From assembly GCA_001724265.1 (NCBI GenBank), contig MEDY01000085.1:1-64000 (forward strand): a stretch of 64,000 nt of DNA, in the 5' to 3' direction. How positions within the stretch are numbered: position 1 is the first letter of the stretch; the number at the start of each line of letters is the position of its first letter. The position numbers and the translations under genes were made by a program. Shown piece after piece: positions 1,983 through 64,000 of the stretch. The stretch is from Rhizaria sp. SCN 62-66. Taxonomy: Eukaryota. The notes beneath the pieces were generated by a model, which ran no database searches, was not told the origin of the DNA, and saw nothing but the letters and a program-made list of their open reading frames with translations.

Positions 1983-3200
1983 TTACATGCGGGCGCGCTT
2001 GCTAGTGTGCTCCACATTAGCTTCATCCCCACTCCCTTCATTGCTATCGCCAACCCTCTTGGCCTCCGCCTAGTCGCTGCCCTTGTGCTCCGTCGCCGCC
2101 GTCTCCTCATCGACCAGCAGCGCCGCGTCGCGCGCGGCCGCGATCCCCCGCATTCCGTCCCGCGCGATCTCGCCCGCCGAGGAGAGCTTGCGGCGCGACG
2201 GCAGTGCGGACGACGCCTGCTCGGCGGTCTCGTCCGCGGCGGCCGGCTGCGTCCAGTGGCGATAGTACCACTGAGGGAAGTGGCAGTACACGTGGGTGTC
2301 AAGCCACGCAAGCGCCTCTGCGGGAACCGACACGGCGGGCGCGTCAAGGGCGGCCATCGCGCTGCCGCCGTTGCGGCGGGCGCGCTTGGCCTTCTTCGTC
2401 TCAGCAGCACCGCCGTCAGCAGCCGCATTGTCTACAGATACAGCGGTAGCAGAAGAGGACGCAGCAGTTGCAGCGACAACGGTGTCGGCGTTTGTGCTGC
2501 ATTGCTCGCCGCCCTCACCCAACGTAGCAACACTGTTGTTGCTGTCGCTGCTGCTGCTATTGCTGTTGTTGATTTTAGGCTCGAGCTCGCGCCTGACCTC
2601 GTCGCTCTCCAGCGCCAGCATCGAGGGCGTGACCGCGAAGCCGTGTTCAAATGCGTAGCGCGCGAGCGAAAAAGCGGCCGGGTCGGCCTGGCGGGCGTGC
2701 CACAGGGCGAGCTGGTCAAAGCGCAGGCGGCGCGTCACCACACCGAGCTGTGAAAAGGCAGACAAAACGCAAAATGGGAAAAATCAAACCAGAAAACAAA
2801 CAGAAATGACTCAGTGAGATCATGATCGTTATGCTAAAACAATAAGACTTCATCAACAATGCAGTTATGCAATCACAAAACAAGTCATTGATAGTTATTG
2901 GTTGCTGGCGAGTGTGAGTCTGTCCTGAGCGTACCTCGTCGAAGTTGGCGGGCATGCCGAGCGCAGTGCGCAGCTGTGTGTGGAACGCCAGCTCACGGAA
3001 CAGGATCTTGAACATATGGGGCTTGACCGAGTGCTTGAGCTCTGGCCCGTGGGCGTCGAACGCGGCGACGAGCTCGTCGCACAGGGCGGCGTTGTTGGGC
3101 ATGATGACGCCGTCGGCAGCGAGCACGTCGCCGTCCTGGCTGTGACCACTCGCAGTCTGAGTCGCAGTCTCTGTCGCAGTCGCAGCGCTTTCAGTGTTCT

Positions 3201-3298
<98 letters not shown>

Positions 3299-12185: not shown

Positions 12186-15100
12186 TCAGTACACGATCAC
12201 GAGTACCCAGTTCATGACGACAAGTACCGGGTTAAACACGATGATCGTGCGCACGATGTCGAGAATGCCTCCCCAGGCCGAGCTCTGCAGCTCCCAAGGG
12301 TGGTCGACAGCCAGGGTCTCCTTGAGCGAGCACTTGGCGCGGCACAACGCGCAAGTGTCGTGTTTACCGACGAGTAACCAGCCGCGGAGGCAGAACTCGT
12401 GGAACACATGCCCGCACGGCAGCGCGTACACGGCCTCGGTCGCGGCCGTTGTCACGAGGCCGACGTTCTCCCCGACCGCGGCGGCGTCCTCGTCCTCGTC
12501 CTCCTCGCCGTCGTCGTCGACACGGCCGCGGTGACCGTGGGCGGCATGTGTTCCTCCGTGCGTACCGTGGCGGGGCACAAGGCCGCCGATCTGGCGCGGA
12601 CGGCCCCCGTCGGCGGTGGCCGCGGTGACCAGTGCGCTGTCGCAGATGGCGCACGTGTTGTCCTTCAGCACAGGCTTGCCGCTGCCGTTACCGCTGCCGC
12701 TGCCGTTGCCGTTGTCGCTGTTGGGCGCAAGCGCGGCCGGGAGACCGACCTGCTCAACGACAGAGTTATCGCTGTTATTGTTATTACTAGCGTTGTCGTC
12801 ATCGTCGAAGTCCGAGTCGGAGTCAGAGTCGTCGTGCTGTTGGTGCCACGTCCCCACCCCCCCAGCATCCGCGCTGTCCGCGCCGTCGCCGCCGCTGGCG
12901 CCCGCCGCCGCAGCGGCCGCGGCGGCCGCCCTGCGTCGTCGCATGCGCAATCCCCCGTCCGCGGCGGGCGCGGGCGCGAGGAGTCCGCGGCGCAGGCGGC
13001 GCGGCAGGACACGACGCAGCACCTTGCGGCCGGCGAGCAACGCGCGCGGCGCGTACCCGATCCGCGCAGCGATGGTGTCTGTGACGACGGCGGCGAGGTC
13101 GCGCGAGAGCACGCCGAAGTAGAGCCCGTAGAAGATGAGGTGCAGGCCGACGTCGCCGAGCCAAAGCAGCGACGACCAGGACATCTCGCCCGACGCGGCG
13201 ACGGCGGCGGCGGCGGCGACGTCGGCCGCCGAGGCGTCGGGGGCCAGCGCGGCGTGCGCGAGGGCCGAGGGGCCAAAGGCGAGGGCCGCGAACAGCAGCG
13301 GCAGACCGGAAAGGTGCAGCAGCAGCAGCACCCAGCCGGCGAGGGCGGCGGTGTAGCAGACCTTGAAGGCGCGCAAAAACCACTGATACACGCGGCGCGG
13401 CGTCGTCGCGGCCATCACAGAGGTATCGGTACCAGTGCCCGCCGCGGCCGCAGCAGTGCCAGAAGAGGAGCCAGCGGCGGCAAAGGAGTCTTTCTTATCT
13501 TTGCTATCCTTGTCGTCCTTGTCCTCGTCTTCTGCGCCAAAGTCTTGTTCTTGGATGTTGAGCGCGCTCGACGGCGCGGGTGAGGTGGCCTTGAGGACGA
13601 GTCGCGCTGTGGCGGCTGTGAACGCAGCCCAGGCCAGGAGGAAGCGCCAGTAGTGGAGGTAGACTGCGAACCAGGCGGGGATGACCCATAGCCCCAGCAG
13701 CATCGCGGCGTCGAACGACCGGCGCGCGCGGCGCTTCCACTCCCTTAGCGCCAGCTGCGAGGCGACGAGGACCAGGAGCATGCCGAGGAGAATGCGGCCG
13801 GAGTCGCGCTCCGTCTCGGACTGTCGGTGGAAGTGTCCGCCGTGCGGGACAAGGTTGTCGGCCGACACTGTAAAGTGCGTGTGCGCAGCCGGGTGCGCGT
13901 GGGCAACGCGGCGCACGTTATAGTGCTTGCCCAGCTTCGCCGCAGTGGCCTCAATCGCGGCTGCAATGTCCTCGCCGTCGCCGCTCGTGTCGATCGTGAT
14001 TTCACGCAGGGAAGACACGGGGCGGCCGTCAGCGCCCACGAGCACAGGGACACTGCCGCCAGCCGCAGAGCCAGCGGACACCACAGCACCAGAGCCAGCG
14101 CCAGCGCCAGCGCCAGAGCCAGCGCCAGAGCCAGGGCTACTAGAGATACTGTCGGCGCCCGGGGCGCCGATCTGCTTGCGCTGCTCGCTCTGCTTCTGCT
14201 GGTCACCGCTCTCGGCGCCGCCCTCGAGCTGCCTCTGCGCGGCGATCGTGGTGCCCGGCTTGGGCCACGGGCGGCCCGCCGAGTCGATCTCGTAGTCGTC
14301 GCCGCCCAGAGCGGCCAGCCCAGCCTCGAGCTGCCGCAGCTTCGCGGCGCGTGCCAGCTTTTCGATCGCACTGACGGCGCCAGCGCTAGCGCCGGTCGAT
14401 AGAACGACGGCAGATGAGCCGGCGGAGTCTGCGGTTATGGCGGCCTGGAGCTGCGCCTTGGCAGCGGTGAGCGCGGCGGCGTTGCTGGCGCCGTGGATCA
14501 TCCGGGGGTCGCTGCGCACGTACGTCGGGGCGGCAGCGCCGGCCTTACTCGCGGCAGCCGCGGCAGTCGCGGTCGTCGCGGTCTTGCCAGACTTTGACTG
14601 CGCGTTCCTGGCGGCAGTCTTTTGCGACGCAGCAGCCTTCGCAGAAGCTGCTGCAGGTGGGGGTGGGGGCACTGTTGAGGTGTCATCCGTGGCCAGCAAT
14701 GCTTTAAAGTAAGCCGCTTCCTCAGCCGAGCCGAAGTCCTCCGCAGCTCGCAGCTCATCATTTTCGTCGTCGTCATCGTCGTTGTCGTCGTCGTGAGATT
14801 TGACTGGTGCGGCAGGGCGAGCTTGCGGCTGCGACGGCGGTTGAGAGTGCGCCAGTGAAGTGAAGATGCGGCGCGCACCGTTGCCCCCACCACCACGCTG
14901 TTGCTGTTGTTGTTGCATATGTGACTGCTGCGGGGTAAAGAGCCCATCGTCACTGCCACTGTCAAGATCGATGTCAATGCCCATCGCTCTGTCCATATCA
15001 CGGCGCATATCAGCCATCATTGCGGCCATCATCCCACTAAACGGGTCACTATTACCACCGTCGCCTAACTTATCGCCGCGGTCCATCATGGCGGCAAAGG

Positions 15101-16694
15101 GGTCGTCATTGCGGTCAAGCAGAGATGTGAAAAGTGGGTCACTGCGGTCCATCATCACGCTGTTCATGTCGTTGTTCATGTCGCTCACCATGCGGTCCAT
15201 CATTGAACTCATGCTGCGCATAATCGTGACAGGCTTCATCGGACCCATGGAACGCATGGGGCTCATACGAGGACTCATGGGGATCATAGTCGGCATCATA
15301 ACAGGCAGATCATTCGCATTACCATTGCCGTCGATCAAGCTAACGGCAACACCGCTGTTGTTGATCTCGGTATCGGCGTTGCCGTTGCGGTTGTCGTAGT
15401 CGTTGCTGTTGCCGTTGGCAGAGATGACGTTAATGGTGTTGAAGAGAGGAGCGCCGTCGCCGCCGTTGTTCAGCATGCTAGAACGGACAGTGCGCGTCAT
15501 CGTCCGCCGCGTCACACCCACGCCACCACCACCGTGACCGTGACCGTGGGCGTTGCTTAGACCGCCGCCACCAATTCCGCCGAAGCCGCCGCTGCCGCCG
15601 AGCGCGTTGAGGTCAGTCGCGGTCGAACTGCTGCTGGTCGCGGTGGTCGTCGTCGTGGTGATGGCTGCGCCGGTGACGGGGTCGGTGTACGTGCTCGTGC
15701 GGGTGACGTACGTGGGGGCACCGTGGCCGCTGTCAAAGGACTGTGAGCCGCTGACAAGTGACTGTGGGTCACCGCCGAGAAGAGACTGTGAGCTATCAAA
15801 GCTGCGGACAAGCTCCTCCAGCAGACTCCCCACGTCGACTAAGGGGGTACTTAGACCGGCGTCTGCGTCGCCACTCATGCCACTCACAGTCCGGGTTGCC
15901 TAAGTACTAAACCTGGCGTTTGATAGCGACAGAGGCAGGGCCAGCGACAGCGCCAGAGGCAGCGCGGCGCCGTCGATCGGCGCGACGGGAGCCACGGGCG
16001 CAACGGGGGCAAAAAGCCCGCCTGCTTCGTCGTCGCCGTCATCATCTGTGTGAACATTGTCGTTGTTCCCGTCGTCGTCGGCGGGGGGAGATGGGATGGG
16101 GCCAGGGGCGGGCACCGACAGACGCAGGCCGGCCAAACCGCCGCCGCCGCCGCCGAGGCTGATGCCAATGCCAGTGGCGCCAGCGCGGGGGCGGACGGGC
16201 GCTGATGAGCCAGAGCCAGAGCCAGAGCCAGCGCCAGAGCCTGAGCCGCCAGAGCCGGTGCTAGCGCCTGTGGAGGTGAACATGTCTGTGTCAGCGGCAG
16301 CGGCGGCAGCGGCGAGGGCGGCGCGCTCGGCGCCCGCGGTAAGGCGGGTGCGGCGGCGGCTGTCCGAGTCTGTTACAACAGTTGCGTCACCGCTGTTGGC
16401 GTTAGCGTCGGCGTTGTTGGCGAGAGTGTTGCCTTGTGCGTCGGTGACTGTGAAGGCGGCGTCAAGGACGGCGTCAATGCCGCGGCCCATGCCGGCCAGC
16501 AGCGCGCGGGCGGCCGCGTCGCCGCCAGAGCCGGCATCAGCACCGGCCTGAGACTGAACCTTCGGTGCAGAGTCAACGGAAGAGTCTGTGGCGGTTGAGA
16601 CGGTGGCTGCGACTGTGGCGGCAAAAGCGAGCGCTAATAGCAGCAACATCGCGCGCAGGAGGGCACGGGGCGCAAGAGCGGCGTGCGCAAACAT
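12186..16694 (-). CDS. RNF121/RNF175-like multi-pass membrane RING-H2 E3 ligase with signal peptide and long N-terminal extension (1502 aa with one in-frame TAG)
   Basis: ORFs 15900..16694 and 12186..15887 are in the same frame, separated only by TAG at 15900-15902 plus 4 sense codons. The C-terminal part has LGLWVIPAWF..LHYWRFL, TTPRRVYQWF, FYGLYFGVLSRD and LPCGHVFHEFCLRGWLLVGK.DTC..C...HPWE. Ends in TGA. Confidence 0.85.
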
Positions 16695-18295
16695 TGAGGA
16701 ACGCAGGGAGAGACAGGACTGTCTCAGACAGAAGACAGAACTCGACTACAACCGAGTGAGAGTTCGAGATAAGTCGGAGTGAGGTCGGGACAGCGGGCGA
16801 GCGCAGACAAGCCTGGGATGGCCGGTCGAGGCAACACTAGAAGATGCTTGAGTGTACGGGGCGGGGGACGCAGTCACAGGGGCGATGCGATAGACTGAGG
16901 CGGTGAGGTGAGAGTGCTGTTGAGAGCAACGCAATGGAAGAGAGCTCGGGAACTTGCTCAACTAGAAGCAGACTGTTCATGAGGAAAATGTCGTTGCAGT
17001 CGAGTGAAATTCTATGAGCATATTAAAATACGTAATTGTAGTATGATACTAAAACAATTGGTTCGGCAACGGTCATGATGCGGCAAATATCATATGCTCG
17101 TTTGTTGCTGACGCGAAGGGTCAAACAAGCGATCAGTTATGTTCAAAGAAAATACGTGAGCTGCATCCTGTTCATGTCAGCAACTAAGATGTGCGTCTGC
17201 CTTGTTGCTTGCGACATTGTATCCATCGATATTGTTTGGGGTATATCTACGCCTGACTGCGCGGTGGCTCAGTAACGTCATAGTTGTCACCAGTGGTTGC
17301 GCTTTCTCTTGTGGCTGAGACATCATTCGATGGCTTGTCCACGTGTCCCGCAATTCGCCGCAAGATTTAACCAACATCCATCGGTTTATCTTCGCACGAG
17401 TGCATGCCGGCGGCGCTCTACGCGCCCGCCGCGCCCCTTTGCACAGCGCCGGCCTCCGTCAGCGCAGCTGTCTTCACTGCTTGCGCCCTCGCAGCCTTGT
17501 GAAATTACATGTTGATAACACGCTAGACGGAGTATCTACTTCTTTATATTGCAGTATGCAACTTTATGCGCAGGAAGCCAACACCACTCAAGTTGAATAC
17601 GCGTATGCGGTCTGTTAGTCCGATATTATGACTTCAAATGTACAGTTTGCATCGACTGCCTCAGCGTGTCAGTGATTGCCATGACTTGCAACGTCGTCAT
17701 CGCAAATACCTCAAAACACAGCCAGTCCACACATGCTATATAAGGTGTGCAAGTGGCGCGACGCGTCTGTTTGAACTTCATTCACTAACGTCCTAGACTC
17801 AAAGTCCACTGATACTTCTATCTTCAAGTGCCTCCTTTGTTTGTGGTCGACTGCGCTCAGCAGGGATTAAGTCATGTATATCGTTGATGACGTCAATAAA
17901 CTATAGCGATAGTACTTAAATATATGCCAGCCACATGATATCTAGAATTCAATGCACAATAATGTTATCTGGCGCATATAACGACACAAAGATTGTGTAA
18001 CAGCGGAGAGTGACTGTGGGCCATCGACGTCCTTGGCCTCGAGGCCGCGTGCACACCGAGGAGTAACTTGCTGATAGCGCTGTAGAATCTGCATGTAGCG
18101 GTTTATTCGATGCATTTGCTGTGCATGTTACGCTTTTGTTGCACTACTAAAATTATACTCCAAATTGACACTTATTACCCGACTATTGGCTATTTCCCCC
18201 AACTCACCTCGTGCCGGTTCGCGTGTGCCTTCTGCTCGCCTCCTTTCTGCTTTCCTACTGTGCATATCAATCCATTCCCTCCATTTTGCAGAAAA

Positions 18296-25818: not shown

Positions 25819-26967
25819 TTACTTCGGCTGGCCGAGCGTGCCGTTCATCTGCGTAAAGCCGCCCAGCGCGGCAACTATGTCCCCACTGGCTCGCACATAC
25901 GCGCTTTGTGCCGCGTCAACGGCGCCGTCAAACGCATCCGCCGTGGCGCGCGCGCGGGCCGTGGTGGTCTCCACGGCGGCGTCGAGCGCCGAGACGTCCC
26001 ACCCGCGCTCTTCGCGGAGGTCGGCGACCATGGCGGCGATGCCCGAGAGCACCATGTCGCGCCCGTGGCGCTCGGCGATGACGACGGCGCGGCGACGGGC
26101 CTCCTCGGCGCGCGGCAGCGCGTACTCAAGCCGTTGCAGGTCGGCCTCAAGCTGCAGCACCGTGCGGTCCTGTGCAGGGCCCGGCGCCGAGGGGTTCTGC
26201 GCGTGGTCGGCAGCGGCCTTGGCGCGCGCGGCGGCTACGTCCTGCGGCGTGACGCGAAGTTTGGCCGCGTGCGTGATGTTGGTGAGCGCGTGATACTCGA
26301 CGACCTCGGCGCGGAAGCGCGCGTAGAGGCGCGCCTTGGCGAGGAAATCGGTCTTGCCGTCGCGCTCGTCGTGGAACAGCGTGCGCGCATCGGCCTCGGG
26401 CGGAAAAAATAGCGCGAGCGCGGCCTCGTAGTGCGGCTGCATGTCAACGCGCGCGAAGTAGAGCGTGAGCCACATGCGCAGCTGCGTGGCGACGCAGAAG
26501 AAGGGCGAGGTGAAGGTGCGCAGCCGCAGGGTAGCGGGCACCATGCACTCCATGTACGTCATGATATCGGCCACGGCCACGTCGCGCAGCTTCGTCGGGT
26601 TGCGCAAGAAGTTGAAGAGCATCGCGGAGGAGAAGCAGCAGGACATACGCTCCTGGTCCTCGGGCAGCGCCTCCTGCAGCGCGGCGCGGAGCAGCTTGTG
26701 CTTGTCGAACGCGAAGGCGTCGATGACGCGGTAGATGGAGAAGTGGCAGGCGTATTCGAGGATCCACATCAGCGCCACGGGCCGCGCCGCGACGGGCGCG
26801 TGCACGGCCTGCTACAGGTGGTACGTCAGCATCTCGGGCGCAAGAAACGACGCTGGGGGCAGCGCCGCAACCATCGCGGACATGTTAGCCGGCGGGGCCG
26901 CGCCGGACGCGGCCGCGGAAGCGGCGGCCGCGGCGGCAGAGGCTGAGGCGGAAGAGGACGATGACAT
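25819..26967 (-). CDS. Uncharacterised protein (~382 aa with one in-frame TAG)
   Basis: ATG at 26967 (MSSSSSASAS...EMLTYHL), TAG at 26812-26814, then QAVHAPV... continues in frame into ORF 25819..26805. Codon bias is coding-like on both sides. Ends in TAA. Confidence 0.7.
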
Positions 26968-28020
26968 CGGGCTCGCGCGCACTGAAAGGAAACGGCTTGA
27001 CAGAAACAGCAAGGGATACTTGCTTTCACAAGTTTTTGTGTAGTTTGTGGCTGATAAGTAGGGTTAGGAGCCAAGTCCTATGAAGGGGGCGTGTGGGAAA
27101 GCGGGACGGTCCGGAAGAAACCAAGGGAACGAAGCAGTTAGCTTGATGACGAGTAAAGGTGATGGAGCACAATCGAGGAAAAACAATAGATAGGCCGCAT
27201 TAAAAATACCAATTGGTGTCTGAAAAATGCCGTTACAATCGTATGTGTCGGACGTAGCGCGACTTCTAGTCATGTAAAGTCACATTCTGAATGGCGCCAA
27301 CCGAGACAACCGAGTATCTACGAGTTCGTAAAAATTCGCCTTCGGCTGGGGGATCTTTTGGAATTCGGCCTCGTGCCCTCCGAAAAGTGCTGCTGGGGGG
27401 ACATCAAGACAACATAAACGCCGAGTATAACGTCTACACTTTGTATCTGTTTTTGGGTTCACTGGTCAGTTTATTTTTTCTTCTCGGAACGTATCCTGCT
27501 TGGGGTGGGATCAAAGTCTTTGGTCACCTCCCAGCTATCCTCCATAAACGGATGCAGCGCCCTCCTCACAGCTTTTTGCCACTTTTTCCAATTGTTTTTG
27601 CACTTGCTTTACGATTACCACAAACATCGCGTACTATTCTTTCTAGAAACACCACTTTAACCGCAATAAACGCTATAGAAGCCTTGTTCTGGTTCTCTAT
27701 CGCGCAGCCTCGCGACTCCCCCTGCCCCTCTGCCCGGTCGGAGCAGCAGTCGCCCGCCAGCCCGCCCATCGACTTCCCCAGCGCGCTCGCACGCCTGGGA
27801 CTGTCCCCACTGCCTCTTCGCGCACGCAGCCCAGTACCCGCGCTTGATAGGGCCATCTAACGCCTAAAAGTTCGTTGCTTCAGGCAGCTGTACGTAACCA
27901 GACCCCTTTCGTGATTGTGTTGTGACACGCAGCAGTCTCGTCGGTCCTCCTCAGCACACTCTCGCTCCACACACACACGCGTAAGCCAGTCGCTCTGTGC
28001 TGCGTGGCGCCCCGCCTGCG

Positions 28021-45052: not shown

Positions 45053-45380
45053 GCGCACGGCGCGACGCGGCGGGGGTGAACTGTACATGTAGTACGCGTG
45101 CGAGTGTGAATGTGAATGCTGGTGCTAGCACGCATAGGATAGCTAATTAAGGAATATCGAGTGTACATGTGTGATATATATGTTTGCTTTTCATGGATGT
45201 AATTCTTTTGTAACCGGGAACAAGATGAAGACAAATAAATGTGTATTGATTCAGAAACTTTTACTTGTGTGTACGAACTTGACACTTTAATGATAAAACA
45301 ACTTTTTGAATGACTGGAAACGAACGAAACAAAACAAAAATAAACCTCACACACGCGCTTTTATACACGCGTTACTTTCT

Positions 45381-48811: not shown

Positions 48812-49289
48812 GAGTGCTTAGACCTGGGAAGTGAGTGATTCAAGGACAGGAGCGAATAACCGGAGATTGGAAAGCAGGCAGAAAAAGCGATGATGAGAGT
48901 GGCGGACTTCAAGCCTGATCATAGACAATATCTTAGAATCCAGGATTAAGAAAAATAGGTAGTATATTGAAATATGTTATATAGCGAAACTAAGTAATCG
49001 TATCCCTTTGTCATCGACACAGATCCCACAAGTCATTGATTCTTCGTGAGTATATCGTGGTCCTGAGTAGCGTTTCGGTCCAACCACAAGCGACAAAGTG
49101 CGACATTCACAGTGAACAATATAAAACATCGCCGCAAGTGTAGGTAGTGTTAATATTAATCGCATTTACGTATGGTTTAAGAGCGTTCAAGTGATGGGAA
49201 ATTACAAAAAAGAAATGTTTCAAGTGAGCTGCAATATTATACACATGAAATCAGTCATACAAATGAATCATACAAATCATTGCGAATAG

Positions 49290-52200
49290 TCACGAATCGA
49301 CACGTACCTTTTTAACATCTGAAAGACGCTCCAGGAGCGTATTGCGCCGCTTCTGCGCCTTCAACAGCCGCTCGCGCATCTGTGCTGCCGCCGCCTCAGC
49401 CGCTTCGACCTCATTCCGCATCGCCGTCGGCGTTAACGCGAGCTGTGCATCCGCATCAACAGTCATTGGCACAGCCACAGCCACTGACGCGGACGCAGAC
49501 GCTGAAGCTGAAGCTGACGCTGACGCTGACGCCGACGCCCCGGTCACTGCCGGCCTGGGATAAAGCGCAGCGCGGTGCGCGGCCAGTGCGGCCGTGGCGC
49601 GGCGCATCTCGAGCGCGTACGCGACCACGCGATCGGCGTTCGCCGCAGCCGCCGCGGCCTCGACGGCGGCCCACTGATCGCGCAACCGCGCCTGCTTCGA
49701 CTGCGACTGCAACTGCGGCTGTAACTGAGATCTCTGCTCAGCGGCCGTAGAAGCGCTGTCCTGGAGCGACAACAGGTGACCGTCAGCAAATGCAGCGCGG
49801 CACAGCAGCGCGCGCCCCGTCTCTGTGCCCACATAGAGCCCGCCGCCTTCGCTGTGGCGCTCCGAGTCACTTGCACAGGAGCTATCGCTGGCCGTGCTTG
49901 GTGACGCGCTAGCAGCTTTAATTGCGTGCATATCTTGCCGCGCAACCTCGCGCTCGAAGGCCATCTTCGCGGCCTGAACCGCACGCCGCGCCGCAGTCTC
50001 CGCAGCGTTGGCAGCGGCGTCGTCAAACCGCTCAGCAAGGCCTATTGTGTTCCCTCTCGCCTCGGCCTCGGCAGCAATCAGCGCCTGCTCTGCGTCCAAT
50101 GCGTCAGCGGTCCGCGCCGCCTCAGCATCAACCGTGGCGGCTGCGGCCTCTGCTGCGGCCGCGGCAGCTTCTGCAACTGCAGTCAGGCCGCACAACGCCT
50201 CAATCTTCTGCAAATGCGCGCGCGCCGCTGCGGTCTGCGCAGGAATCACCCGCTCGCCGACATCACGGCTCAGAGCGCCGGAGAAGCTGGCGTTGGCATC
50301 ACCAGCGCTGGTGGTCAGCAACACAGGGTCGAGAGCAGTGCGCTCAACTTCGTGGCCCCACTCCTCGAGCACCAGGCCCGCGCACTCCTCCTCTGCCGCC
50401 GCTCCGGCGCGTCCTCCAGCGGCGCCAAGCTGCGCGTCCGCGGCGTCCGCGGTGACGTCGGCGTTGGGGCTCCACTGAGCGCGCGCGTTGGGAGCGAGCG
50501 CGGCGGCGGTGTCTGCGTCGGAAAGCGGCATCCCCAACTGTGTGCGGCGGCGCGCTGCCACGACGGCGTGCATCGTGGGCAGCAGCGTCAAATTGCGCGC
50601 GTTGTGCTGCGCACCTGCCTCTAGCGGAGTCCCGCGCTCACAGTTGGCAATGTTCCGATGCAGTCGCGCGTGTGAAAACGAAAACGAATCCCACCGCGGC
50701 TCCACTGGCCGCGCGCCGGTGCCAGCAACGGCAGACCGCGACGCCACAGCGCGCGTGCGCTTCGCAAGCCTGGAGAGCGTGACAGCAAGCGCGGATGACC
50801 GCTCAGGGTTCTCCCCACGTGCGCGCAACTGTTCGTCGCGGCGCAGCAACACAGAGATACGCGCGCTGAGTTCTACTGGTGGCAAACCCGTAGTGGCGGC
50901 CTCAATCGCGCCCGCAACGCCACGTGCAGCAACCGCAGTGTGCACAGCCTGAAACGTCGCCGTGCTTGTGTATGGACTCTCCAGCATGTGTTTCGGCCCA
51001 CGTGCGCCAGTAATACTATGGCTACTCCAGTCATCACTATCAGAAACGACACTGTTGTCGTCCTCGTCATCGTCGTGATTGCTAGACGGCGCAAGCATAT
51101 TCATGGTGTGCAACAAGCCTTGAAGAAAAGGCGAAAACAGCCGAGCGCGTCTCGATGCGCGGGCACTCGCACCTGTGTTCGCGCGCAAGTCCTCGTCTTG
51201 ATCAGCGTTGTCTGTGCGTTGTTCATCGATTCCACTGCAATCACTGACGCGGCCTAGGCCAACAAATACAACGTAGCGCAGGAAAGAAAACAATCGGAGC
51301 TCGGCCGCGTCCGCACTCGACGCAGCTAGTTCGTGTTGCTCAAGCAGTACGTTGCTGTGCACAACGTCCGCATCTGTTGCGGTACAAACAGATGTTGCTG
51401 CAGCAGCCACGGTCGCAACGTCATTATGCCCGCTCTCTGGCATGATTCGCGGGCTATAACGCATGTCAACAGCGCGGAAGGCCGTGCGCAGGCTGGAAAG
51501 TCCGTCAGGATCATCGTCTTGAACAAATTGTGGCGTTGAAGCCGCTGTCAGCAGCGCTATCGCTCGCCGCCGCAGTACAGCCACCGCAGCGTGCGCTACA
51601 GAAACGTCACTCGCACCCTTCGCAGCTGGGCGGCGCAGCACGCGGCGCAGCTCAGCGAGCGCTGCGGGCGCGAACAGGCGCGCAAGCAACGTCAGCAGCG
51701 CGGCCTCGTGGGCGCTAAACGCAGCCGTAACTGCGCTATGTCCGGCGCGCGCCCGCCACCTGCGCGCCGCAGCGTGGTTGGGCGGTGCTGCAAAAGCGCC
51801 GAGTCGAGTGTCAAAAGGCGTGGCAGTATAGACGAAGTTGGATGTCGCACGACCCAACGCTACAGCGTCACTGTGGAGCGAGTTGTTCCAAGCGCGTTCA
51901 GGCAGCCACACACGCCACGCAAAGCTGTGGCAGTAGCGCAACACCGTCAGCGCGTGCGCGCCGCGAGCGGATAGCGGTGTCGCGGGCCCCGGTACAGTAC
52001 TCGATGTACCACCGACCAGCGGCAACCACCGCGGCACTGCGCCGCTCGCGCGGTCACCCGGCGTCCACGCCTGAACCACGACCGGGTGAGTCGCCTCGCG
52101 AGTCGAGGCTGTCACAGTTGGCGCTGTCGGAAGTAACAAGGCAGTGGACACACCATTGATGACGCTCGGCTTGTCTGTGACAAGTCGCGCCGCCTCCTGG

Positions 52201-55200
52201 ACGCCATACGGCCAGGACGTTGTGGCGCGGTGAGCCAGAGCAGTGGCCACGGGCGCTGCAAGAGCTCGCGCGGCCAACAATGCGTGTTGCGAGACGGCTG
52301 AGAATATAGGGTGCGACTGGGCAAGAAATCGCAGCGCGTGTGCCTCCGACGCCGCCGCAGTGATGATCCGTAGACTGTTGTTGTTGTGTACAAACTTCTC
52401 TAAGTCATCCTCGCGCGGGCCGCTCGAGGCCCCGCGTCCGCGCCAGCCCATTACGCCGGCAACGACAGCTTCACAGTCACGTAACGTCCCCTCCTCAATG
52501 TGTAGATTGCTCGCAGACGCACTAGCTGTTCCTGCTGCATTTGTATCAACACTACTTGTTGCGAAGCCATCAGAACTTGCAGTTACGACAGCGCGGGCCG
52601 CGGGCATCACGATGCGCTTCGCAGCGAGTGCGTTGGCGGAAAATGACGAGTCGCTCGACGAAAGCAGCAAGGCGGGCATGGGTGGCATTGGCGGGGGATT
52701 GTGTAGCGGGTGCTGCGGCGGCAGCACAGTGGGCCCAAAGCTGGCTGCCAGAAGCTGCTCAGCAGCGCCCCAGCCTGCAGCAGCGCCCACGCTCCCTGCA
52801 ACGCGATCAGTATCGCCGCCACATGCGTAGATGTCCATGAACGCGCGCGTCGCCCGAGCTGCATCGTTATCGACGCCCTTCGCACCCACGTTGCTGTTCG
52901 GTGCGGGTACCAGCACATGAACAAACGAAAGCGCAACCATGCGTCCAAAGCTCGCCAGATCCGGCTGCAACTCGCCTGATTCAGTCGCAGATGTGTAAAA
53001 AGAAACGCTCGCACTTGCTCTCGCGTCTGCAGAAGGGAACGCTAAGGTTTCGGTCGCCATATTGACCGTCTGCTGCTCGAGCATACAGCGGCGCATGTTA
53101 AGGTCGCCGGCAAGCGCCTCGAGTGCGACTGCACGGAGCCCACGTGAAAGGGCATCAGCATGTTTGTCCTGCGCTACAGAGGGACCCGGGATCGCACTCG
53201 GCGCAACCAGAGGCGCCGTCGCCGCGAGCGCCTCTGCCACGCGCCCTTCGAGCACTTTGGGTGCCGTGAGTGGCGGCTCTGGTCCATCCGCAGCGCGTGC
53301 GGCTGCGGCGACGCGCGCGTGGCGAGACACTGCTTGCAGCGTCCGCAAAACAGGCTCAGCCGCCAGCTCGGCGTTGCGGGTAAGCGCGGACGATACACGC
53401 GCTAGCGCGGCGTCACACCCTGCAGCGGTGCCCTCGTTGTCACGATCAGCGCGGCTGCTTGTGCTGCTACTCGAACTGTTGTTACTGGTGCTGCTGCTGC
53501 TCCCGTCATTGTCCAAGTATTGATGGCAGAACGCCGCAACGTAGGACAGTGCAGCATTTGCACTCAAACGGCTCGCGTCCGTCGCCCGCGCGCGCTCATG
53601 CCCGCGCTCTGCGTGGCTCTGGTCCGGGCCGCGTTGTTGACTTTGCTGTTGAATGTGCCTCGAATGTTGATGCGGTTGCATACCCTGTGGCGCCGAAAGC
53701 GAGTCGACGTCTGCGAACTGCATGTGCGCGAACGCGTGCGTAACCGGGGGCAGGTCCACGCCCGCAAGCGCTGCGTTGCCACCGCTGGGCGCACGCGCGT
53801 GTTGTGTGGCAGACAGCGCAACCTACGCAGAGTTAACAGGCCGCTGCAGCCTCGGGGTCAAAATGCGCGATAGCGCTGCTTTAGCTGCAGTTTCGGCAAT
53901 CTCGCGTTGTCGGGCGTCAAACTGCGCGCGCGAGCTCGCGCCCGTGACTACATTGTCGTGAATGCTGTCGTTATCCGGGGCAGCATTGGCAGGGTTGTTG
54001 CCTTGATCGTTACGTAGCGCGTACTTTGGGTCCACACCCCTCGGGCCGCCATTTTTGCCGTGGGTTTGCTTCTGTTGCTGTTGTTGTTGCTGTTGCTGCC
54101 GTTGATGCTGTGTCGGCTTCTCGCGTTCACGCAACGCAGCGCCTTCAGCTGCAGCCGTGTGGGCCACAAACGCGACGTCGTCTGCAGTAAACCCCGTCAC
54201 AACGGCGTGCGTAGCTTCACATTCGGCGCGCACAGTCGCAAGTTCCTCAGCGACTAGAGCGGCCACGGTGGCGTCTTCGCGCGCACGAATGGCGGATACA
54301 GCCCGTGAGCAACTTAAGAAGTCGTTCGCAACTACGGCGTCGGCCTCTGCGGCGACAGGCGCAGCGGCGGCCGCAGTAGCAATGCGCAGCGTCGCGTCGG
54401 CCTGCAGTGCGTGCGATGCTGCCGCTGCAATTGCGGGGAACAGCGCCGACGCAGGCGCAACGCCAAAGAAGGTCAGCGCACCGCCGCCTGCGCGCGCGTG
54501 CGCTGCTGCAGCCGCGGCAGCCGCCGGGGGCAGTTCATTTGCAGATACACGCGAGTCGGTAAAGTCGTGCTGCATGTAGCCCAACGCTGCGTTGGCGGGG
54601 CTAAAGACGGCGTCGAGTGGGGTCACTGCGCCGTACGCTGAAAACAACGGACCGCCGCCGTTGGCAACAGTGTTAGTCACTGCGTCCCCGCAGGGACAAT
54701 AAGGTACAGGCAAACTCGCAGCGAACGCTCCGGCGGTGACTGCATTTGGTGCGTCAGTGGTGGCGCCTGTGGTGAGATGCGCCATATGAACATCGAAGTC
54801 GCGCCCGTCAGTGAGCGCGTGTGACCACGCCGCTGCATAGAGCTGGCGCTGCTGCTGAACTAACGCGGCGCGCTCATCTTTCACGCGCGGTGCAAACCCT
54901 TGCTGGGACACCGGGTGCTGCTGCTTTGGTTGCAACTACTGATGGGGTGGCTGTTGTTGTTGCTGTGAGGCAGGCGCATATCCATTCGCAATCTCAAGCA
55001 ATTCGACCAGCAACGTCGGCACAGGCAGCAAGAACGGCTATTTTCCTGGAGATGAAGTCGCAGTACTCCTTGAATCCACAGTCTTAATCAAACCTCTGCT
55101 GTCACGACTGCTGTGCTCATCGTCGTCGCCGTCTTCGGCCCACGCGCGCATGACCGCCATGCGCACATTGCTGCCAATGCCCTGCGCCTCCGCGGACGGT

Positions 55201-57377
55201 AGCCCCAGCCGCACTGCCTGCGCCCGCGCCTCGCTCTCAGCCCGCGCAGCCTCCTGTTGCAGCTGCGGGTCCCGCAAGCGCGCCTCGGTGCGCACCTGCT
55301 GCGCCTTGACGGCCTCCGCCACGCCCGGCACAGGCTGGCGCGAAGGTGCCTTGTTCGCCGCCTTGAGCGCTGCATCAAGCGCGGCGCCTGCGAACGCGAG
55401 CTGCAGCTCGGGCGCGCGCAGCACCTCGGCCCACGGCGCGTACACGGTCACCGTCGCGCTGTCGCGGGTTGTGGGCGCGGGAACGCATGGACACGAGCAC
55501 GCCATCGGCCTTGTGGCAGCAGCAGCAACGGCGACAGCGGCAGCAGCAGTGGAGACACCGGCGGCCTCATCGTCGCCGCTCGTTAAGGACGTCAAAGCAG
55601 TCGCAGGCGCTGGTAGGGGGCTTGTGGAGTCGCACCAAAAGTGTTTGCAGCGCGACGAATACAGCACATTGCCGTCCTCGCGTCCGCACTGCAAACAGCC
55701 CGTGGGCAGCAGACCCGCGTCGGGCGCGCCCGCCGCAGCGGCGGCAGCGGGGGCGGGCTCTAACGCGCCGCTGCCAGCGCCGGCTGTACGCGGGCGCGAC
55801 GGTGCGTAAGGCAACGGGTGTGCCGCGAGTGTGAGCCACTCGAGCTGCGCCGCGCGCGTGTCCGCCGCCTCGGCGTCGCGCTCCTCGGCGCGGGCCTGCG
55901 CGCCCTCCTGCGGCGTCAGCGGCTACTGCTGCTGCGCGGCCGCGCGCGCAAGCCGGCGGCTGCGCCGCCCCTCTGCCGCGCGCCGCGCTGCCCACGCGTC
56001 CGCGCACGCCTGCGCCGCGCCGCCCGAGTGCCGCAGCGCGCGCTGCACGGCAACTGCGGCGGCAGCGCACGCGTCCTCGTTCGCTGCGCGCGCGGCGGCC
56101 TCCGCGAAGCGCAGCAGAGAGTCGTACGCGCTCGTGAGCAGCAGCCCAGTGCCGTTGTCCGTTTTGTCGCCGAGCCCGGCGCCTTGCCCCGCCACCGGTA
56201 CGTCCAGCGTGTGCCCGTGGGGGTCTTCGTTGGCGTCAACGCGTGCCTCGCGCCGAGCCCGGGCGGCGTCTGCCGCGCGTTCGTCAAACATCCCGATTGC
56301 GCGCGCATCGTGGTCGTCGCTGTCGTTCTTGTTGCCGTTGTCTTCGCCGTCGCCGGGCGGAGCCAAAAGGCGCTGCGCAAGCGCAGCGGCTGCGGCGGCG
56401 CGCGCGAGGGCCCAGTAGCGGGCGAACGCGGTCGCCGCGCGCGCCCAGGGCCGCGCCACAACCTGCATGCCCCAGTGGGCCTTGTAGCCGTCGTAGGCCG
56501 CCGCCAGCACGTCCGCGGTCATAGCGCCCGTCGCCGGCTCAGCCCCCGCGGCCGACGCCCCCCGCGGCGCCGGCGCCAGGTGTTCCGGCAGCAGCGGCGG
56601 CGGCGTGGCAAGCGACGTGAGCAGGGAAAGCGGCTGGTGCTGAAGTTGGCTGAGGCCGTCCAAACCCGCGCCCGCGCCAGCGCCCAAGCCTCCGCCGCCC
56701 TTGCTCGCACCAGAGTCCGCAGTGAGCCCCGCTGCGGCCGGTGCCCGGCGGCGGGCGGGCGCGGCGGTGGCCACAAACGCTGCGGCGGTGCGGTAAGCGA
56801 GCGGCATCTCTGACATGCTGCGCGCGCGCGCGGCGAGGTCGGGGTCGCCACGGTGGGTCAGTAACGCGAAGAGCGTCGTTAGGAAGCGCGGCGACAGGCG
56901 CAGGCCCGGCAGGGGGGCGAAGCCCACGGGCGGCGGCAGCGGCGGCGCGGGCGGCGGCAGCAGCGGCGGCGGCACGTGGCCCGGCCCCTCGGCCGTGGCG
57001 TGGCCCGTGAGGTCCAGGAAGGGGTTTATCGGCGGCAACAGGCCGTCGTGCAGGCGGGACAGCACCTGCACCTGCGCCTGCGCCGCGGATGTGTCTGCAT
57101 GCGCGCCTGTAGATTCGCGAAACGCGGCTAATGCGGCCTGAGACGGTGTGGGCGCGCGGAGTGTTGGGTTAGGCTCTGGGTGAGGGCCCCAGCCCGCTAA
57201 CGCGGCGGAGAGCTCGGCTGGGTCAGACAGCGGCAGGCGTTCACGTTGGGTCACAGCGACATGAATAGGGGGTTGCTGCGCCAGCGGCTCCCTCTGCCCA
57301 GTTGATACGCATAGGGGTACCGGGTGTACCTACTGTTGTCGCTTTGGTGCATCTCTATCTGAGTCACGGCGACTCAT
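49290..57377 (-). CDS. Giant uncharacterised protein (2695 aa) containing five in-frame TAG codons
   Basis: ATG at 57377 (MSRRDSDRD...) to TGA at 49290-49292 in one frame. The only interruptions are TAG at 57330, 55923, 55038, 54936 and 53823. I read all inter-ORF gaps codon by codon and found no TAA or TGA. Confidence 0.78.
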
Positions 57378-57976
57378 GATAGAAACGCGCGATCACGACT
57401 CCTGGTGCTCGCGCTTGAAGCATCAAAAATGAGAAGCGTGATTGAGATTATCTTATCGTCAATGTGGAATATAATATGATTTTAATATATAGTAACGCTG
57501 TTAATTCGTGTTCTTTAAATTATACTCGCTGTGGGTGTCGTATTAAACATTAATACCCGGATTCGATTAGACGCTACTTGCTGACGATGCTGCGCACTTG
57601 CAAGAGCTCTCAGAGCGTTCTGATGTCAGCGAAAAGCGACACTTCGCGGACCAGCATCACTCGCGCGTAGCTGGTGCGTGTATGGCTGGTAGTTCTTGCT
57701 GCCCGCGATGCCTCTGCTCTTGGACAGTCATTTATGTATCCATCAGGATCAAGCAGACTGTCATAGGCTAACGAGGCTTGACATGACTGAGCACATCTGC
57801 GGTTATGTTTGTTTGATGACGAAGCACGCTTAATTCTTATAATGTTGAACTATAGCGATCTTAGAACTCCGCTGAGCAAGGTTACCAATCGTACACCAAT
57901 CAGGCACATTCATCGCACAAACTATTCTCACGTGGATACCTACATTCCATCACATCTTTTGACACAGCGTCTGCGT

Positions 57977-59422: not shown

Positions 59423-59769
59423 GCAAGAGGCGAACGCTTAGTAGACAGAGGGAGTTTGGTTACATAGTAGACTTTGTTGTGTTCACTGTGGAAAGAACAT
59501 CGATGTTCTTCCGCTAATGAATTTAATGGGTGTGTTTGACAAAAAAATGAAATATTGTGTATTATTATGTTTTATTAATAAGCCTACGTATAAATTAACG
59601 CAGATTAATCAACACAGAAGCAGTTTCGGTGATGAGTTATACCTCAGCTGAGTGTGTAAACTACGTGTGATGTAATATTCGAGACACGACATATTAGAAC
59701 ACTTAATACTTAGACAACTAAAACAAAAACGAAAAAGCATCAAAACATTCCATGACGTCTTGAAACAAC

Positions 59770-62700
59770 TTATGTGGACTCATTCTTCTGTTTCCCCCGG
59801 TAGTTCTGAAGCACTGCGAACGCTTGCTCGCGCGCGAACTGCATCATCTCCGGCGACGCGCCGGCCAGTCGCGCGCACGCCAGCGCGGCGTTTTGTGCAG
59901 CCGGCTCCCAGCGCGGGTTGTCGCGCCGCAGCAACAGCATCACGCACGAGCCAACGGCGTGCAACACACCAACGCCCCGCAGAGGCCCCGTTCGCTGAGC
60001 GGCCGAGGCAGACGCAGCCTTTCCCGTTGCAGCGCCGCCTGCAGCGTCGACGATAGCACTGAGCTCCGACTCCCACTCCTTGAGCTTGTCCTTCTTGGCT
60101 GCGCCTTCCAAGAAGCTCCCCCGCACCTCGCACGCCGATAGCACAGCGCGTGTTGAGGTCAGAACGGCAGCGCGGACAAACGCAGACGGCGCGGTCGAGA
60201 AGTGCTTGCTCCAGACAGCCTGTGAAACCATCGGCGGCGGCAACTGTGCAATTTTAACCACGACTTGCGCGAAGTTGCCCGCAGTTTGCGGCGACCACGA
60301 GTTAAGCACGAGCGACACAACGCCGGCCACGCCAGAGCCTGATGCAAGCGTCACGGCGTCATGAATGTAGTCCTCGCTGCGGGCTGATAACTTACATAGC
60401 TCCACGGCGCGCGCTGCTGCCAAGGCATGCGCGATGCCCGTGGGCAGCGCGCCTGCGGGTGCCGGAAGCGCGGACCCGGGGGCCAAACCCAGGTGCTCCG
60501 ACGTTATGTAGCCGGTCGCGCGCTCCCATTGCTCCGCAAAGCCCCTGTTCATAGGCACCGTTTTCCCCCAGCTCGTAACTGCCGTGTTTGATGCCGCCTT
60601 GCGCGCATTGGGGTGCGCCGCTAGGGCGGCAGCCTTGGCCGAGACGGGCCCCGGTGAAGGGAACTGGTCGAGCTCGCGCGAGGCCTGCTGCGGGTCGTGC
60701 TGACACAGTACCGCGACGATGCGCATACAGTGGTCGCCGAGCTAGATAAGCTGATCCAGGCGCGTCACAACCTCTTGCTGAGTACTGCGCTTTGAAAACG
60801 AATCCCTCGCATTGTTGCCATCTGACAGTTGGCTGTTCTCCGGCATTGCAGCAACCGCAATAGAAGCGATTCCCGTGCCAAGCATAAGTCCAATGCCATT
60901 GCGCGCTAGCAGATCATCGCGCACAGCGAGATTTCCTGTTGCAAGCCGCGAGAGCAAAGCTGCAATGCACATCATGAGTTGCAGGTAGAGTCCGGAGCAC
61001 GTAACACGGAATGAAGTCGTTCCTGTCAGTGAGGGCGCCAACAGCGCGAAAAGTGCCCATGGCAATGCAGGTGCCGCTGTGACAATGCGTGTTGCTGACT
61101 CGACGCCTGCGGCAACGGCGAACGCCATCAACAGGTGAAGCGCTTCATGAAGCAGCTTCATGTGACTGTTCAGGACACCGAAAGCCGGCGCAGGTGTCAG
61201 GGGGAGTACTAGCGTCATATTCCAGCGGTCAAAGACAGGTACACTCAGCACGTAGAAACAAGCACGCAACACAATGCCAGTGACGATCTCTATAGAACCC
61301 CCCTTAATGGGGTTGCCATCATCATTATCGGCAACGAGGGCGCCGTCCTCTGGCTCATCGGGCATGCTGGGCGCGGCCAGGCGAGTGCAGAGTGCGGTGT
61401 TGGCAGCGAGATTAGAAAGCACCTGAACCACGCTGCAGTGCAGCATGGATATTGACTCCGAGGTGGCGACGCGAAGCTGTTTGCCAATCGACACGCTCTT
61501 CATAGCCTGGAACTGGACGCCATGATTGGCAAGGTAACTTTTCACGCTCTTGCCCCACAAGTCATCGATGAAAGGCGCGGCAACAAAGCCGGCGAACGTA
61601 CTCGCCATTTGTATGGCAATAAGCTGCTTTGCATTTACTAAGGCTTGGGCGACATCACGCACCTGCGATAGGATCTGAACCCGTTCAACCAGATCTTGTG
61701 GCAGAGTCTGTTCCACTGTGGCACCCTTACCTCCCTTGGACCCAGTCTTTTTGTGCGAAAGTTCATTCAACTTCTTGCGCTCGCGCATGAGCTGCTCGTT
61801 AGCAGCCACAAACTCGCGATCGTGGCGCGCGAATTCGCGATATGCACTGGCAACTGCGTGCACAGTCAGTGAGAGTTGAATTTCAGCTGCGGTGCTATTT
61901 GAAAATCGCACGCCAACGCCGAAGCCGAACTCGGGCCCCGCAGCTGAGTACTCGGCACCATCGGTTGGGCTGACAGAAAAGTTGTCGTCCACTGCAACGC
62001 GAAGCGTCTTGAGCAGCGCCGCGAGCAGACTCGCTCCCGGCTGCCAGCCATTTGGCGTCAGTGCCTTGACGCGCTCGTCGCTCGTGAGGTTCACAGTCAT
62101 GTCAAGCAGGTGCTGCGTTGCGCCACGGCGCACGAGCCGCTGGCCCGAGGGCAGGACGGACGCCGCGTCGACGGGGCGGTGCTCAGCGGTGCTGTAGGGA
62201 GTCGGAGGCCTCTTACTCGCAATGGTGCGCAGTATCTCCCGTGTGTACATGTCCTCCGCGAGTGCCGTGCTCGTTGCCATCATCAAGATTTCCAGCAGAT
62301 CTTCTTGCCCCGAACCTGCGCGCATGTCAGCAGCAGACGCCGCTGGCATGACCCTGTTCACGGCGCTGTCAAAGATCTTCGCACGCACCACACTTGACTC
62401 CAGAACGTCACACAGAAAGCCGGTGGCAATCTCGAGCGTCACCGCGATTGCGCTGAGCCATGACTCAGTGGGTGCGTGCGTCGCGGCAGCAGCGACTGTC
62501 ATCATAGCATCCTGAATTTGCGCAGCTTCTCTAGCGACAATATCACTGGTGTCACCGTCGTTGTATCTGTCCATGTTACTCAGATTGACCTCGCCGTGAG
62601 GCGGGGAGTTGCCGTGAGCCTGCATGTTCACACACTGCATAATCACGCTCTCGAGCTGCAACAGCTGGTGCACGAGACGGGCGACGATTCTTACGACGCC

Positions 62701-64000
62701 ACAATGCAACATGTTTGCGGCGGTGGTTGAGCGCAGTGGCACGAGAGAGCGGAGTACGATGAGAATGCGGGCCAGGGCTACCCAGTGCGCGTCTACGTCT
62801 TGTGCTCGTTGGCGTCCGTCAGAGTCGATCTCGGAGAGACGGCAATCATAGTTGATGCTGTTACCATGACCCTTCATCAACTCCTGTTTGGCGCACTTGC
62901 GCGCATCGTTTCGGATGGCCATAATCGACTTAATGGCGCTGGGCCCCGGCAGCAGTGTCACAGTGTATATCAACGCGTGCATCAGCGTGCGAATCCCTTT
63001 CCGCCCGGCAAAGTTGTACTGTTTATACAAGCTCGCTGACGTGATGCAACGCATGACCGTTGATAGTGGTGTTAGTGTCGCAGCCTCTTTGCGCCACGCC
63101 CATGTCTGCAGCAAGCGTAGCGGGCCCGATGCAATACGTGGTGCACTAAAAAGCGAGGATGTGTACTTCACATTGTCGGCCTCTGTAGCGGTGAGGAGTT
63201 CGAGCACGTCTTTGCTTAAATCAGCACTTGTGTCGTCATTTTTATTTTCTCCACCCAGTCCAAGGTGGAAGAAAACGAGGTTCCGTAGTGATGCACCAGG
63301 AAGCTGGGCATAGACACCCAAAAAACAGCGTGCAGCCAACAGGTCATCTGATACGCGCTGATCGACTTCAGACGCCACGCGAGGGAATAAGGACCTCAAA
63401 CTGACGAGCTCATCCACGGGCACCTACTCCAGCGCAGCACGCGCAGCAACGGCACTGTCGCTGTTGCCACCCACGCTCGCGCCGCGACGGCCCTTGCGTG
63501 CGCCGCCCAAACTGGAGTGGTGCGGGATAATGTCGGCAATCGGGTCTGCACCGGACGTTTGTGAGCGCGAAGCGTTAGACAGGGTCAAATCAACGAATGC
63601 TAGAGCCTGCAATGACAACTGCGCCATTGACATCTCCGAATCGTGGTGCATCTCTTGAAAGATGATATCGAGGTCCTGATCATCAAAGTCCTCACTGTCG
63701 CCAAACCTAGCGGCCCAGGCGTGCTGTAGCGCAGCGTCGCTGGCGCCGAAGAGCTTGTCAAAGCCGTCGTCGTCGTCGTACCTGTCGCCAAAGGTGCCGT
63801 TCTTGCCGACAAGGCGTTCCTACTTGGATTTGAACGTTACTTTTTCCGTCCGAGCACGGGTGTCGCCAAGGGTAGCAGTGTCCTCACCGTCGTTAAAGTC
63901 GATGTCATTGATGTCACGCGTGTTGCTGCCATGAACGCAATTGGTTGAGCTGTTAGACTTGTTGTTATTATCAGTACCATAGATGCGCCGCGCTCGACGG
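59770..64000 (-). CDS. Large helical/ARM-like repeat protein, 5'-partial (>1400 aa) with three in-frame TAG codons; C-terminus weakly reminiscent of TTC12
   Basis: One frame is open from the window edge to TAA at 59770-59772 except for TAG at 63820, 63424 and 60742, which join ORFs 63424..63651, 60742..63423 and 59770..60726. ARM-like segments include VLSNLAAN, TAGNFAQ and QNAALACARLA. Confidence 0.72.

Follow-up and report, generated by a model that had tools for sequence, protein, structure and literature searches.

Evidence for UAG as a sense codon, most likely for glutamine, in a GC-rich eukaryotic contig

Contig MEDY01000085.1 of the assembly GCA_001724265.1, deposited as Rhizaria sp. 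SCN 62-66, contains long open reading frames (ORFs) that are interrupted in frame by the codon TAG. The stretch analyzed here—the window, meaning positions 1 to 64,000 of this contig—raises two questions: whether TAG is translated in this organism and which residue it encodes. That TAG is translated and does not terminate is strongly supported, and it is very probably a sense codon in the organism of the window. The best explanation is a nuclear code of the type of NCBI table 15, in which UAG encodes glutamine (Gln); the probability of this reading is put at roughly 0.65. Gln is the most likely residue, being the best-fitting candidate, and is unproven.

Four long ORFs, with lengths of 414 to 2700 codons and without any TAA or TGA, hold ten in-frame TAGs between them. 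These ORFs total 6000 codons and are weakly codon-biased. They are listed below with their TAGs; the asterisk stands for TAG in the translation, and X3 and X4 denote runs of two other studies, whose contigs cover part of the window.

49290..57392, minus strand: ORF of 2700 codons with five TAGs, ending in TGA, of no Pfam family; it contains the region under study
57330..57332, minus strand: TAG in CAA CAG TAG (KRQQ*V); less secure, possibly 5′ of the true start; unchanged in X3 and X4 contigs
55923..55925, minus strand: TAG in CAG CAG CAG TAG (AAAQQQ*P); securely in frame, with 294 open codons after it; under no listed independent contig
55038..55040, minus strand: TAG in SPGK*PFL; securely in frame, not adjoining Gln; unchanged in X3 and X4 contigs
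54936..54938, minus strand: TAG in CAT CAG TAG TTG CAA (QQQQQPPHQ*LQPKQQH); securely in frame; unchanged in X3 and X4 contigs
53823..53825, minus strand: TAG in VNSA*VAL; securely in frame, with 1510 open codons after it; unchanged in an X3 contig
59770..63999, minus strand: gene of an ARM-like protein, 1409 codons seen, 5′ end cut by the window, three TAGs, ending in TAA
63820..63822, minus strand: TAG in KSK*ERL; probably coding, in a poorly alignable N-terminal region; unchanged in an X4 contig
63424..63426, minus strand: TAG in ARAALE*VPVDEL; colinear alignment across it, homologues K, Q, S; unchanged in an X4 contig
60742..60744, minus strand: TAG in RLDQLI*LGDHCM; directly 5′ of the best-conserved C-terminal domain, homologues A, A, D, S; unchanged in an X4 contig
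12186..16700, minus strand: gene with a hydrophobic, signal-peptide-like start and a RING finger at its end, one TAG, ending in TGA
15900..15902, minus strand: TAG in ARFST*ATR; 264 codons past the ATG of the hydrophobic N terminus, with 1237 open codons after it
25819..26970, minus strand: gene of unknown family, one TAG, ending in TAA
26812..26814, minus strand: TAG in CTG TAG CAG (YHL*QAV); less secure, as the gene could begin at a Met about 17 codons downstream
2070..2072, minus strand: candidate 11th TAG, in ORF 1983-2783, 29 codons before its TAA; could equally be a terminator

All four contexts in which the initial annotation saw TAG beside Gln codons (55923, 57330, 54936, and 26812, minus strand) are exact, and its count of 11 TAGs corresponds to the ten in the four long ORFs plus the candidate at 2070-2072. 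The latter belongs to an ORF of 266 codons without a Pfam family (1983-2783, minus strand) and, unless it is an 11th sense TAG, marks the only gene end in TAG found here. Seven of the ten TAGs lie firmly inside coding sequence and are referred to as secure. With 10 occurrences in 14581 codons, in-frame TAG has the same count as AGA, the rarest sense codon tallied. Because TAG is so rare, a conserved-domain column is lacking within one window, and no TAG in the window lies under a Pfam match. In the three longest TAG-bearing genes, the GC content at third codon positions (GC3) is 0.66-0.75, compared with 0.87-0.94 in six Pfam-supported reference genes.

The translation of TAG is best appreciated from the openness of the frames and from the way genes end. 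At the six-frame density of TAA plus TGA of 1.78% per codon, the probability of meeting neither over 2700 codons is about 8e-22. After all 18 TAA or TGA terminators, the next stop follows 2-33 codons on (median 12.5), whereas the ten TAGs are followed by 33-1510 open codons (median 350; Mann-Whitney p = 1e-5); since the TAGs were picked via long ORFs, this comparison is descriptive and not an independent test. Terminator usage, however, is independent of that choice. The 18 gene ends consist of ten TAA, eight TGA, and no TAG, and no in-frame TAA or TGA occurs inside the 18 genes. In all 14 genes without an internal TAG, the first stop is TAA or TGA, a small sample for which P = 0.04 if TAG is assumed to make up 20% of stops. 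TAA is the commonest terminator (10/18) despite the high GC3 of the conserved genes.

The composition of the sequence and independent contigs point in the same direction. A coding-type excess of GC at the first over the second codon position is present in 11 of the 12 segments flanking TAGs—the exception being the 20 codons before TAG 57330—and in all five inter-TAG segments of the 2700-codon ORF. Of the eight TAGs in 44001-64000, seven lie under listed contigs from X3 and X4 that show no difference at the site; 55923-55925 is the one TAG of this region that is under no listed piece. Because independent contigs carry the same TAGs, these are not sequencing or assembly errors. Exact contigs of a polyA metatranscriptome (X5) lie inside the 2700-codon ORF at 50489-51014 and 56343-56600.

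The ARM-like gene (59770..63999, minus strand) is the sole TAG-bearing gene with homologues. HMMER, run exhaustively against 1.84 billion representatives, gives six matching proteins, and the family seems confined to this lineage. The homologues bear N-terminal TPR repeats, which in the window gene would fall beyond the window end. One homologue of 1591 aa aligns over query residues 2-1193 in one stretch, across TAG 60742-60744. The 323 residues past this TAG are the best-conserved part of the protein, with 60-66% identity to relatives, and as the conserved domain lies downstream, the TAG must be read through. The alignments cross both this TAG and TAG 63424-63426 without insertion. A scan of metagenome contigs gave three loci, of which L003 is identical to the window, L001 is 64% identical, and L002 is 60% identical. 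L002 has its own in-frame TAG at position 604, in the middle of the conserved C-terminal domain, in a gene that ends with TAA, and a tandem paralogue on L001 has two, at 2986 and 3472. Across the three species, the interruptions are TAG only, at differing positions, and never TAA, TGA, or a frameshift. Under a model of decaying genes, about 60% of the stops born by transition would be TAG; the probability of ten out of ten is then 0.006, and that of 13 out of 13 including the relatives is 0.001. The GC content around the window TAGs is 0.49-0.84, without an intron-like dip. Since three TAGs align colinearly without insertion relative to homologues, these three are not located in introns.

Which residue UAG encodes can be approached from the neighboring sequence. 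Four of the ten TAGs adjoin Gln. In the same four ORFs, non-Gln residues adjoin Gln in 356 of 5751 cases (6.2%), with any other residue reaching at most 12%, and Gln residues do so in 55 of 227 cases (24%). Finding at least four out of ten has P = 0.0023 for an arbitrary residue versus P = 0.21 for Gln; hence, the enrichment at the TAGs is real and Gln-like. A naive-Bayes context classifier, which uses residues −3 to +3 and was trained on the 18 proteins of the window, places Gln first with all ten sites, followed by Leu and His 6-7 bits behind and by Lys and Glu about 15 bits behind. With the seven secure sites, Gln keeps the first rank, by 2 bits over Pro and Leu and by 8.5 bits over Lys. 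At three sites, the classifier places Gln at rank 17 or lower.

The second approach is the comparison of TAG columns with homologues. Five columns with a total of 18 homologue residues can be aligned, a sample that is tiny and drawn from homologues that are not mutually independent. The columns are {A,A,D,S}, {K,D,Q,I,A}, {K,Q,S}, {E,D,R}, and {E,T,N}, meaning that they are variable and polar. Leu, Trp, and Tyr do not occur among the 18 residues, and Ile occurs once. With scores from a substitution table that was derived from the very alignments in question, the five-column sums amount to 5.3 bits for Asp, 5.2 for Lys, 3.9 for Glu, 2.3 for Asn, 1.9 for Gln, and −0.6 for Ser; Leu, Tyr, and Trp are 17-35 bits lower (Leu, −16.9 to −32.3 bits; Trp, −19.6 to −35.2 bits). 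In a calibration, five true columns recovered their residue as top candidate in 94% of trials for Leu, 98% for Trp, 83% for Tyr, and 73% for Gln. As judged from these alignments, Leu, Trp, and Tyr are rejected as the UAG residue, and Lys, Asp, Glu, Asn, Gln, and Ser would fit about equally. No residue other than Gln ranks in the upper tier by both column and context: Leu and Tyr, the runners-up by context, fail the column test, and Lys and Glu, the leaders by column, fail the context test.

Several observations weigh against the assignment to Gln or against the translation of TAG, and they are gathered here. Only 2 of the 18 column residues are Gln, none of the columns shows Gln conserved, and the scores of Lys, Asp, Glu, and Asn exceed that of Gln by 0.4-3.4 bits. 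In the closest relatives, a window TAG is paired with A and A and the L002 TAG with K and D; none of these pairs is with Gln. Restricted to the secure TAGs, two of seven adjoin Gln, which compared with the background of 6.2% gives P = 0.065 and a likelihood ratio of only 2-3 for Gln over Glu, Lys, or Leu. Moreover, CAG is a very common codon from which a transition leads to TAG, so that Gln tracts would be the preferred place of origin of TAGs regardless of their meaning. This change is the commonest mutational route to TAG, and Gln-rich tracts tolerate substitutions. Because of this origin, the context evidence was discounted to a few-fold likelihood ratio, by judgment and not by computation. 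Two of the Gln-flanked sites are less secure: TAG 57330 is 15 codons past the first ATG and is preceded by 20 codons without coding-like composition, and TAG 26812 is only 52 codons past an ATG. Ten Pfam-supported reference genes contain no TAG in 8581 codons. Iotanema and the ciliates that use table 15 have tens to hundreds of UAG columns at conserved Gln, with a share of 58-70% at conserved Gln columns in those ciliates (PMC11687900), whereas the window has none, since the sampled conserved genes lack UAG. ARAGORN gave no tRNA in the window or in loci L001-L003, and among the matches listed no RNA contig spans a TAG.

The initial annotation had read UAG as Gln, in preference to Leu, Glu, and Trp, with the TAGs behaving as synonymous variants of CAG in Gln tracts. 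What stands of this is the translation of TAG, the enriched Gln context, the first rank of Gln by context, and the rejection of Leu and Trp by the columns; the preference over Glu does not hold there, as Glu scores above Gln. Neither Leu, Tyr, nor Trp forms the majority at the TAG columns, Glu still fits, and Gln is not confirmed by them. The Trp that had been expected under A-to-I editing is contradicted by its column scores. The adjacency of four TAGs to Gln agrees with synonymous variation, but the CAG-to-TAG route would give the same pattern whatever is encoded.

The alternative that survives best, although considered unlikely, is that UAG is dedicated to a polar residue other than Gln, namely Glu, Lys, Asp, Asn, or Ser. 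Such a code would account for the four residues above Gln in the small column sample, and the Gln context could herein stem from the mutational origin of TAG in CAG. Two TAGs directly follow Lys (GK*, SK*), but the context puts Lys 8.5-15.5 bits under Gln. Two others adjoin Glu (LE*, *ER), and codes with UAR as Glu exist (PMC11687900), yet Glu is 15.8 bits under Gln with ten sites and below the 12 listed residues with the seven secure sites. The codons of Asp and Asn are two mutational steps away from TAG. Among the codes described in the available text of PMC11687900 and PMC5304391, there is no nuclear code in which UAG encodes Lys, Ser, Asp, or Asn, and Gln is the commonest outcome of the nuclear UAG or UAR reassignments described.

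The preferred reading, a table-15-type code, would comprise the following. UAG would be a rare sense codon of the nuclear code that encodes Gln, with UAA and UGA kept as terminators. As UAA remains a terminator, decoding should fall to a tRNA whose anticodon is CUA and which by analogy with known cases would read UAG and not UAA; PMC5304391 argues in this way for Iotanema spirale and exLh, and PMC11687900 does so for phyllopharyngean ciliates. A single anticodon substitution in tRNA-Gln(CUG) would probably have given rise to the tRNA(CUA), and the release factor eRF1 would have lost its efficient action on UAG. That one ORF carries five TAGs suggests that decoding is efficient and not a matter of sporadic read-through.

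A weak or ambiguous stop, with near-cognate read-through in some contexts and termination in others, is very unlikely. It would be in line with the rarity of in-frame TAG and its absence from the ten reference genes, and the TAG 29 codons before the TAA of ORF 1983-2783 (minus strand) could be a real stop. TAG ends none of the 18 genes, however, and five TAGs per ORF would presumably leave almost no full-length protein unless decoding is efficient; CARYYA, a read-through motif, follows none of the TAGs. Even less probable is a change of TAG at the mRNA level, either by U-to-C or A-to-I editing or by removal with unrecognized introns. The lineage does have spliceosomal introns, one of which, in L002, contains TAG TAG, and the listed RNA contigs cover no TAG, but the alignment crosses three TAGs without insertion, which makes these exonic, and no dip in GC content is present at the window TAGs. 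Trp, the product of A-to-I editing, scores −20 to −35 bits at the columns and is thereby rejected, and U-to-C editing would yield Gln anyway. The standard code, with the TAG-bearing ORFs as pseudogenes or adjacent separate genes, is the least probable, for although high-GC DNA yields many long spurious ORFs and the TAG-bearing genes are weaker in codon bias and mostly without homologues, the interruptions in the window (10/10) and in the relatives (3/3) are TAG only, at positions that differ among three species, the best-conserved domain lies downstream of a TAG, no gene ends with TAG, and 2700 codons are free of TAA and TGA.

Compared with known codes, the window is most similar to table 15, in which UAG encodes Gln, and UAA and UGA are stops. 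This code is described for Iotanema spirale of the Fornicata (PMC5304391) and for the ciliates Hartmannula sinica and Trochilia petrani (PMC11687900). In the organism of the window, likewise, only UAG occurs in frame, and UAA and UGA terminate, with UAA being the commonest. It differs from the table 15 organisms by its GC content of 62.6%, a multi-gene contig, a canonical intron in a relative, and a mitochondrial-type ETF-alpha gene. Its GC-rich contig with several genes and its ETF gene of mitochondrial type suggest an organism outside both the ciliates and the anaerobic fornicates; if so, it would represent a further independent origin of the code.

In table 6, UAR encodes Gln, as in Tetrahymena, Oxytricha, hexamitin diplomonads, and others. 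A study of Q-rich motifs in ciliates reportedly places the reassigned codon in Gln-rich tracts, and the window resembles this code in that a stop is reassigned to Gln and the reassigned codon occurs in such tracts. Table 6 was rejected, as TAA ends 10 of the 18 window genes and is never in frame. Codes with UAG as Leu are described for the rhizarian exLh (PMC5304391) and an uncultivated clade of phyllopharyngean ciliates (PMC11687900). They share with the window that UAG alone is reassigned, that UAA is kept as a stop, and that they were discovered from meta-omic data; with Leu at 0 of 18 column residues and 17-32 bits below the best candidates, this code was rejected as well. Context-dependent stop/sense codes, described for Condylostoma, karyorelicts, and UAA in Blastocrithidia (PMC11687900), also have a stop codon inside genes, but in the window TAG ends none of the 18 genes (a small sample), and one of three stop codons is affected.

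The window has a length of 64 kb, a GC content of 62.6%, and about 18 closely spaced genes on both strands, in which no introns were seen. The genes identified by Pfam encode ETF-alpha (mitochondrial-type), dihydrouridine synthase, Vps18, a cytoplasmic-type AsnRS, a LIM protein, a poly(A)-binding protein (PABP), a WD40 protein, an ankyrin-HDAC, and prefoldin; a protein kinase has a weak ARM-repeat match in its C-terminal part. This gene content is typically eukaryotic. No release factor is present among the Pfam matches of the 24 window ORFs scanned, and an eRF1 gene was not seen there; Rfam gave no match in the window. Viral contigs scanned with AsnRS and PABP gave no confirmed matches, and the PDB matches to AsnRS hold no taxonomic signal. 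The DNA of the window is present in bioreactor, wastewater, and activated-sludge metagenome runs of several studies, and the source organism is an uncultured, GC-rich, and intron-poor microbial eukaryote. The literature, mostly covered by title listings, gave no report that could be tied to it. In the HDAC gene (window 45916-46337), contigs of X5 and X4 runs differ at 36 positions in 422 bases (about 91% identity); from these differences it follows that a related strain or species co-occurs in the X5/X4 samples. The C terminus of dihydrouridine synthase (window 3200-3330, minus strand) contains a homopolymer tract of about 35 Gln, and the paralogue on L001 a tract of 41 Asn (about 4750-4875). 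Such tracts are unusual for genomes this GC-rich.

The relatives of the ARM-like gene share a common arrangement. In both, the gene is followed by a same-strand paralogue (L001:2-2011 and 2695-5793; L002:1-1200 and 1849-2919). The paralogue on L001 shares about 30% identity with the window protein, and that on L002 is the start of the database protein P0009. In the 5′ part of the latter paralogue (L002, about 2405-2555), there is a canonical frame-keeping intron of roughly 165 nt, going from GTAAGT to GATAG, with a GC content of 32-40% in 60-nt windows and the TAG TAG mentioned above. As P0009 begins inside this intron, its database gene model is wrong. P0009 (1444 aa) ends where the family continues, and P0005 (313 aa) begins about 13 residues later at a Met; P0005 is seen on contigs of the same maximum length as those of P0009. 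Going by this arrangement, P0009 and P0005 may belong to a single gene that an in-frame stop or an intron divides. P0004 (1427 aa), which represents the cluster of P0009 and has the same C-terminal tail, ends opposite a Leu common to five others, in an uncertain alignment.

Further searches with the TAG-bearing proteins gave little. For the 383-aa protein of 25819..26970, only itself was found (one match in 8000 scored candidates); its database prediction comprises 328 aa (86% of the query) and is shorter than the read-through ORF. Residues 400-1300 of the 2700-aa protein had no match among proteins of 1485-4725 aa, and 185 pattern matches of this protein in metagenome contigs gave no confirmed one. 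Ala-rich low-complexity words probably swamp the word index, so that missing homologues are no proof of absence. A further profile search gave four proteins, all already found, and a scan of genome contigs gave 40 pattern matches, none confirmed. In the ESM Atlas, a segment of the ARM-like protein gave generic ARM-repeat look-alikes only, and the 1510-aa segment of the 2700-codon ORF gave nothing usable.

Nuclear codes in which UAG and UAA differ in meaning are rare, and they bear on how tRNA(CUA) and eRF1 can separate the two codons. PMC5304391 and PMC11687900 describe exLh, Iotanema spirale, and, among phyllopharyngean ciliates, three such events. The code of the window would be a further case. 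For annotation, the consequence is immediate: gene callers with the standard or bacterial code cut proteins at each TAG, so that the annotation of such metagenome bins is systematically wrong, and the database entries for the organism of the window are fragments of 770, 318, and 328 aa. A more far-reaching and rather doubtful proposal is that an uncultured, GC-rich, non-ciliate clade from wastewater-type habitats, with at least three species (window, L001, and L002), freed UAG independently, and that the rarity of UAG and its confinement to weakly biased genes reflect early codon capture, with another polar residue such as Lys or Glu perhaps in place of Gln. If UAG alone encoded Lys, this would be a nuclear code absent from those described in the available text of PMC11687900 and PMC5304391. 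A GC-rich and apparently non-ciliate case with UAG as rare as the rarest sense codon would illustrate an early or low-usage stage of reassignment.

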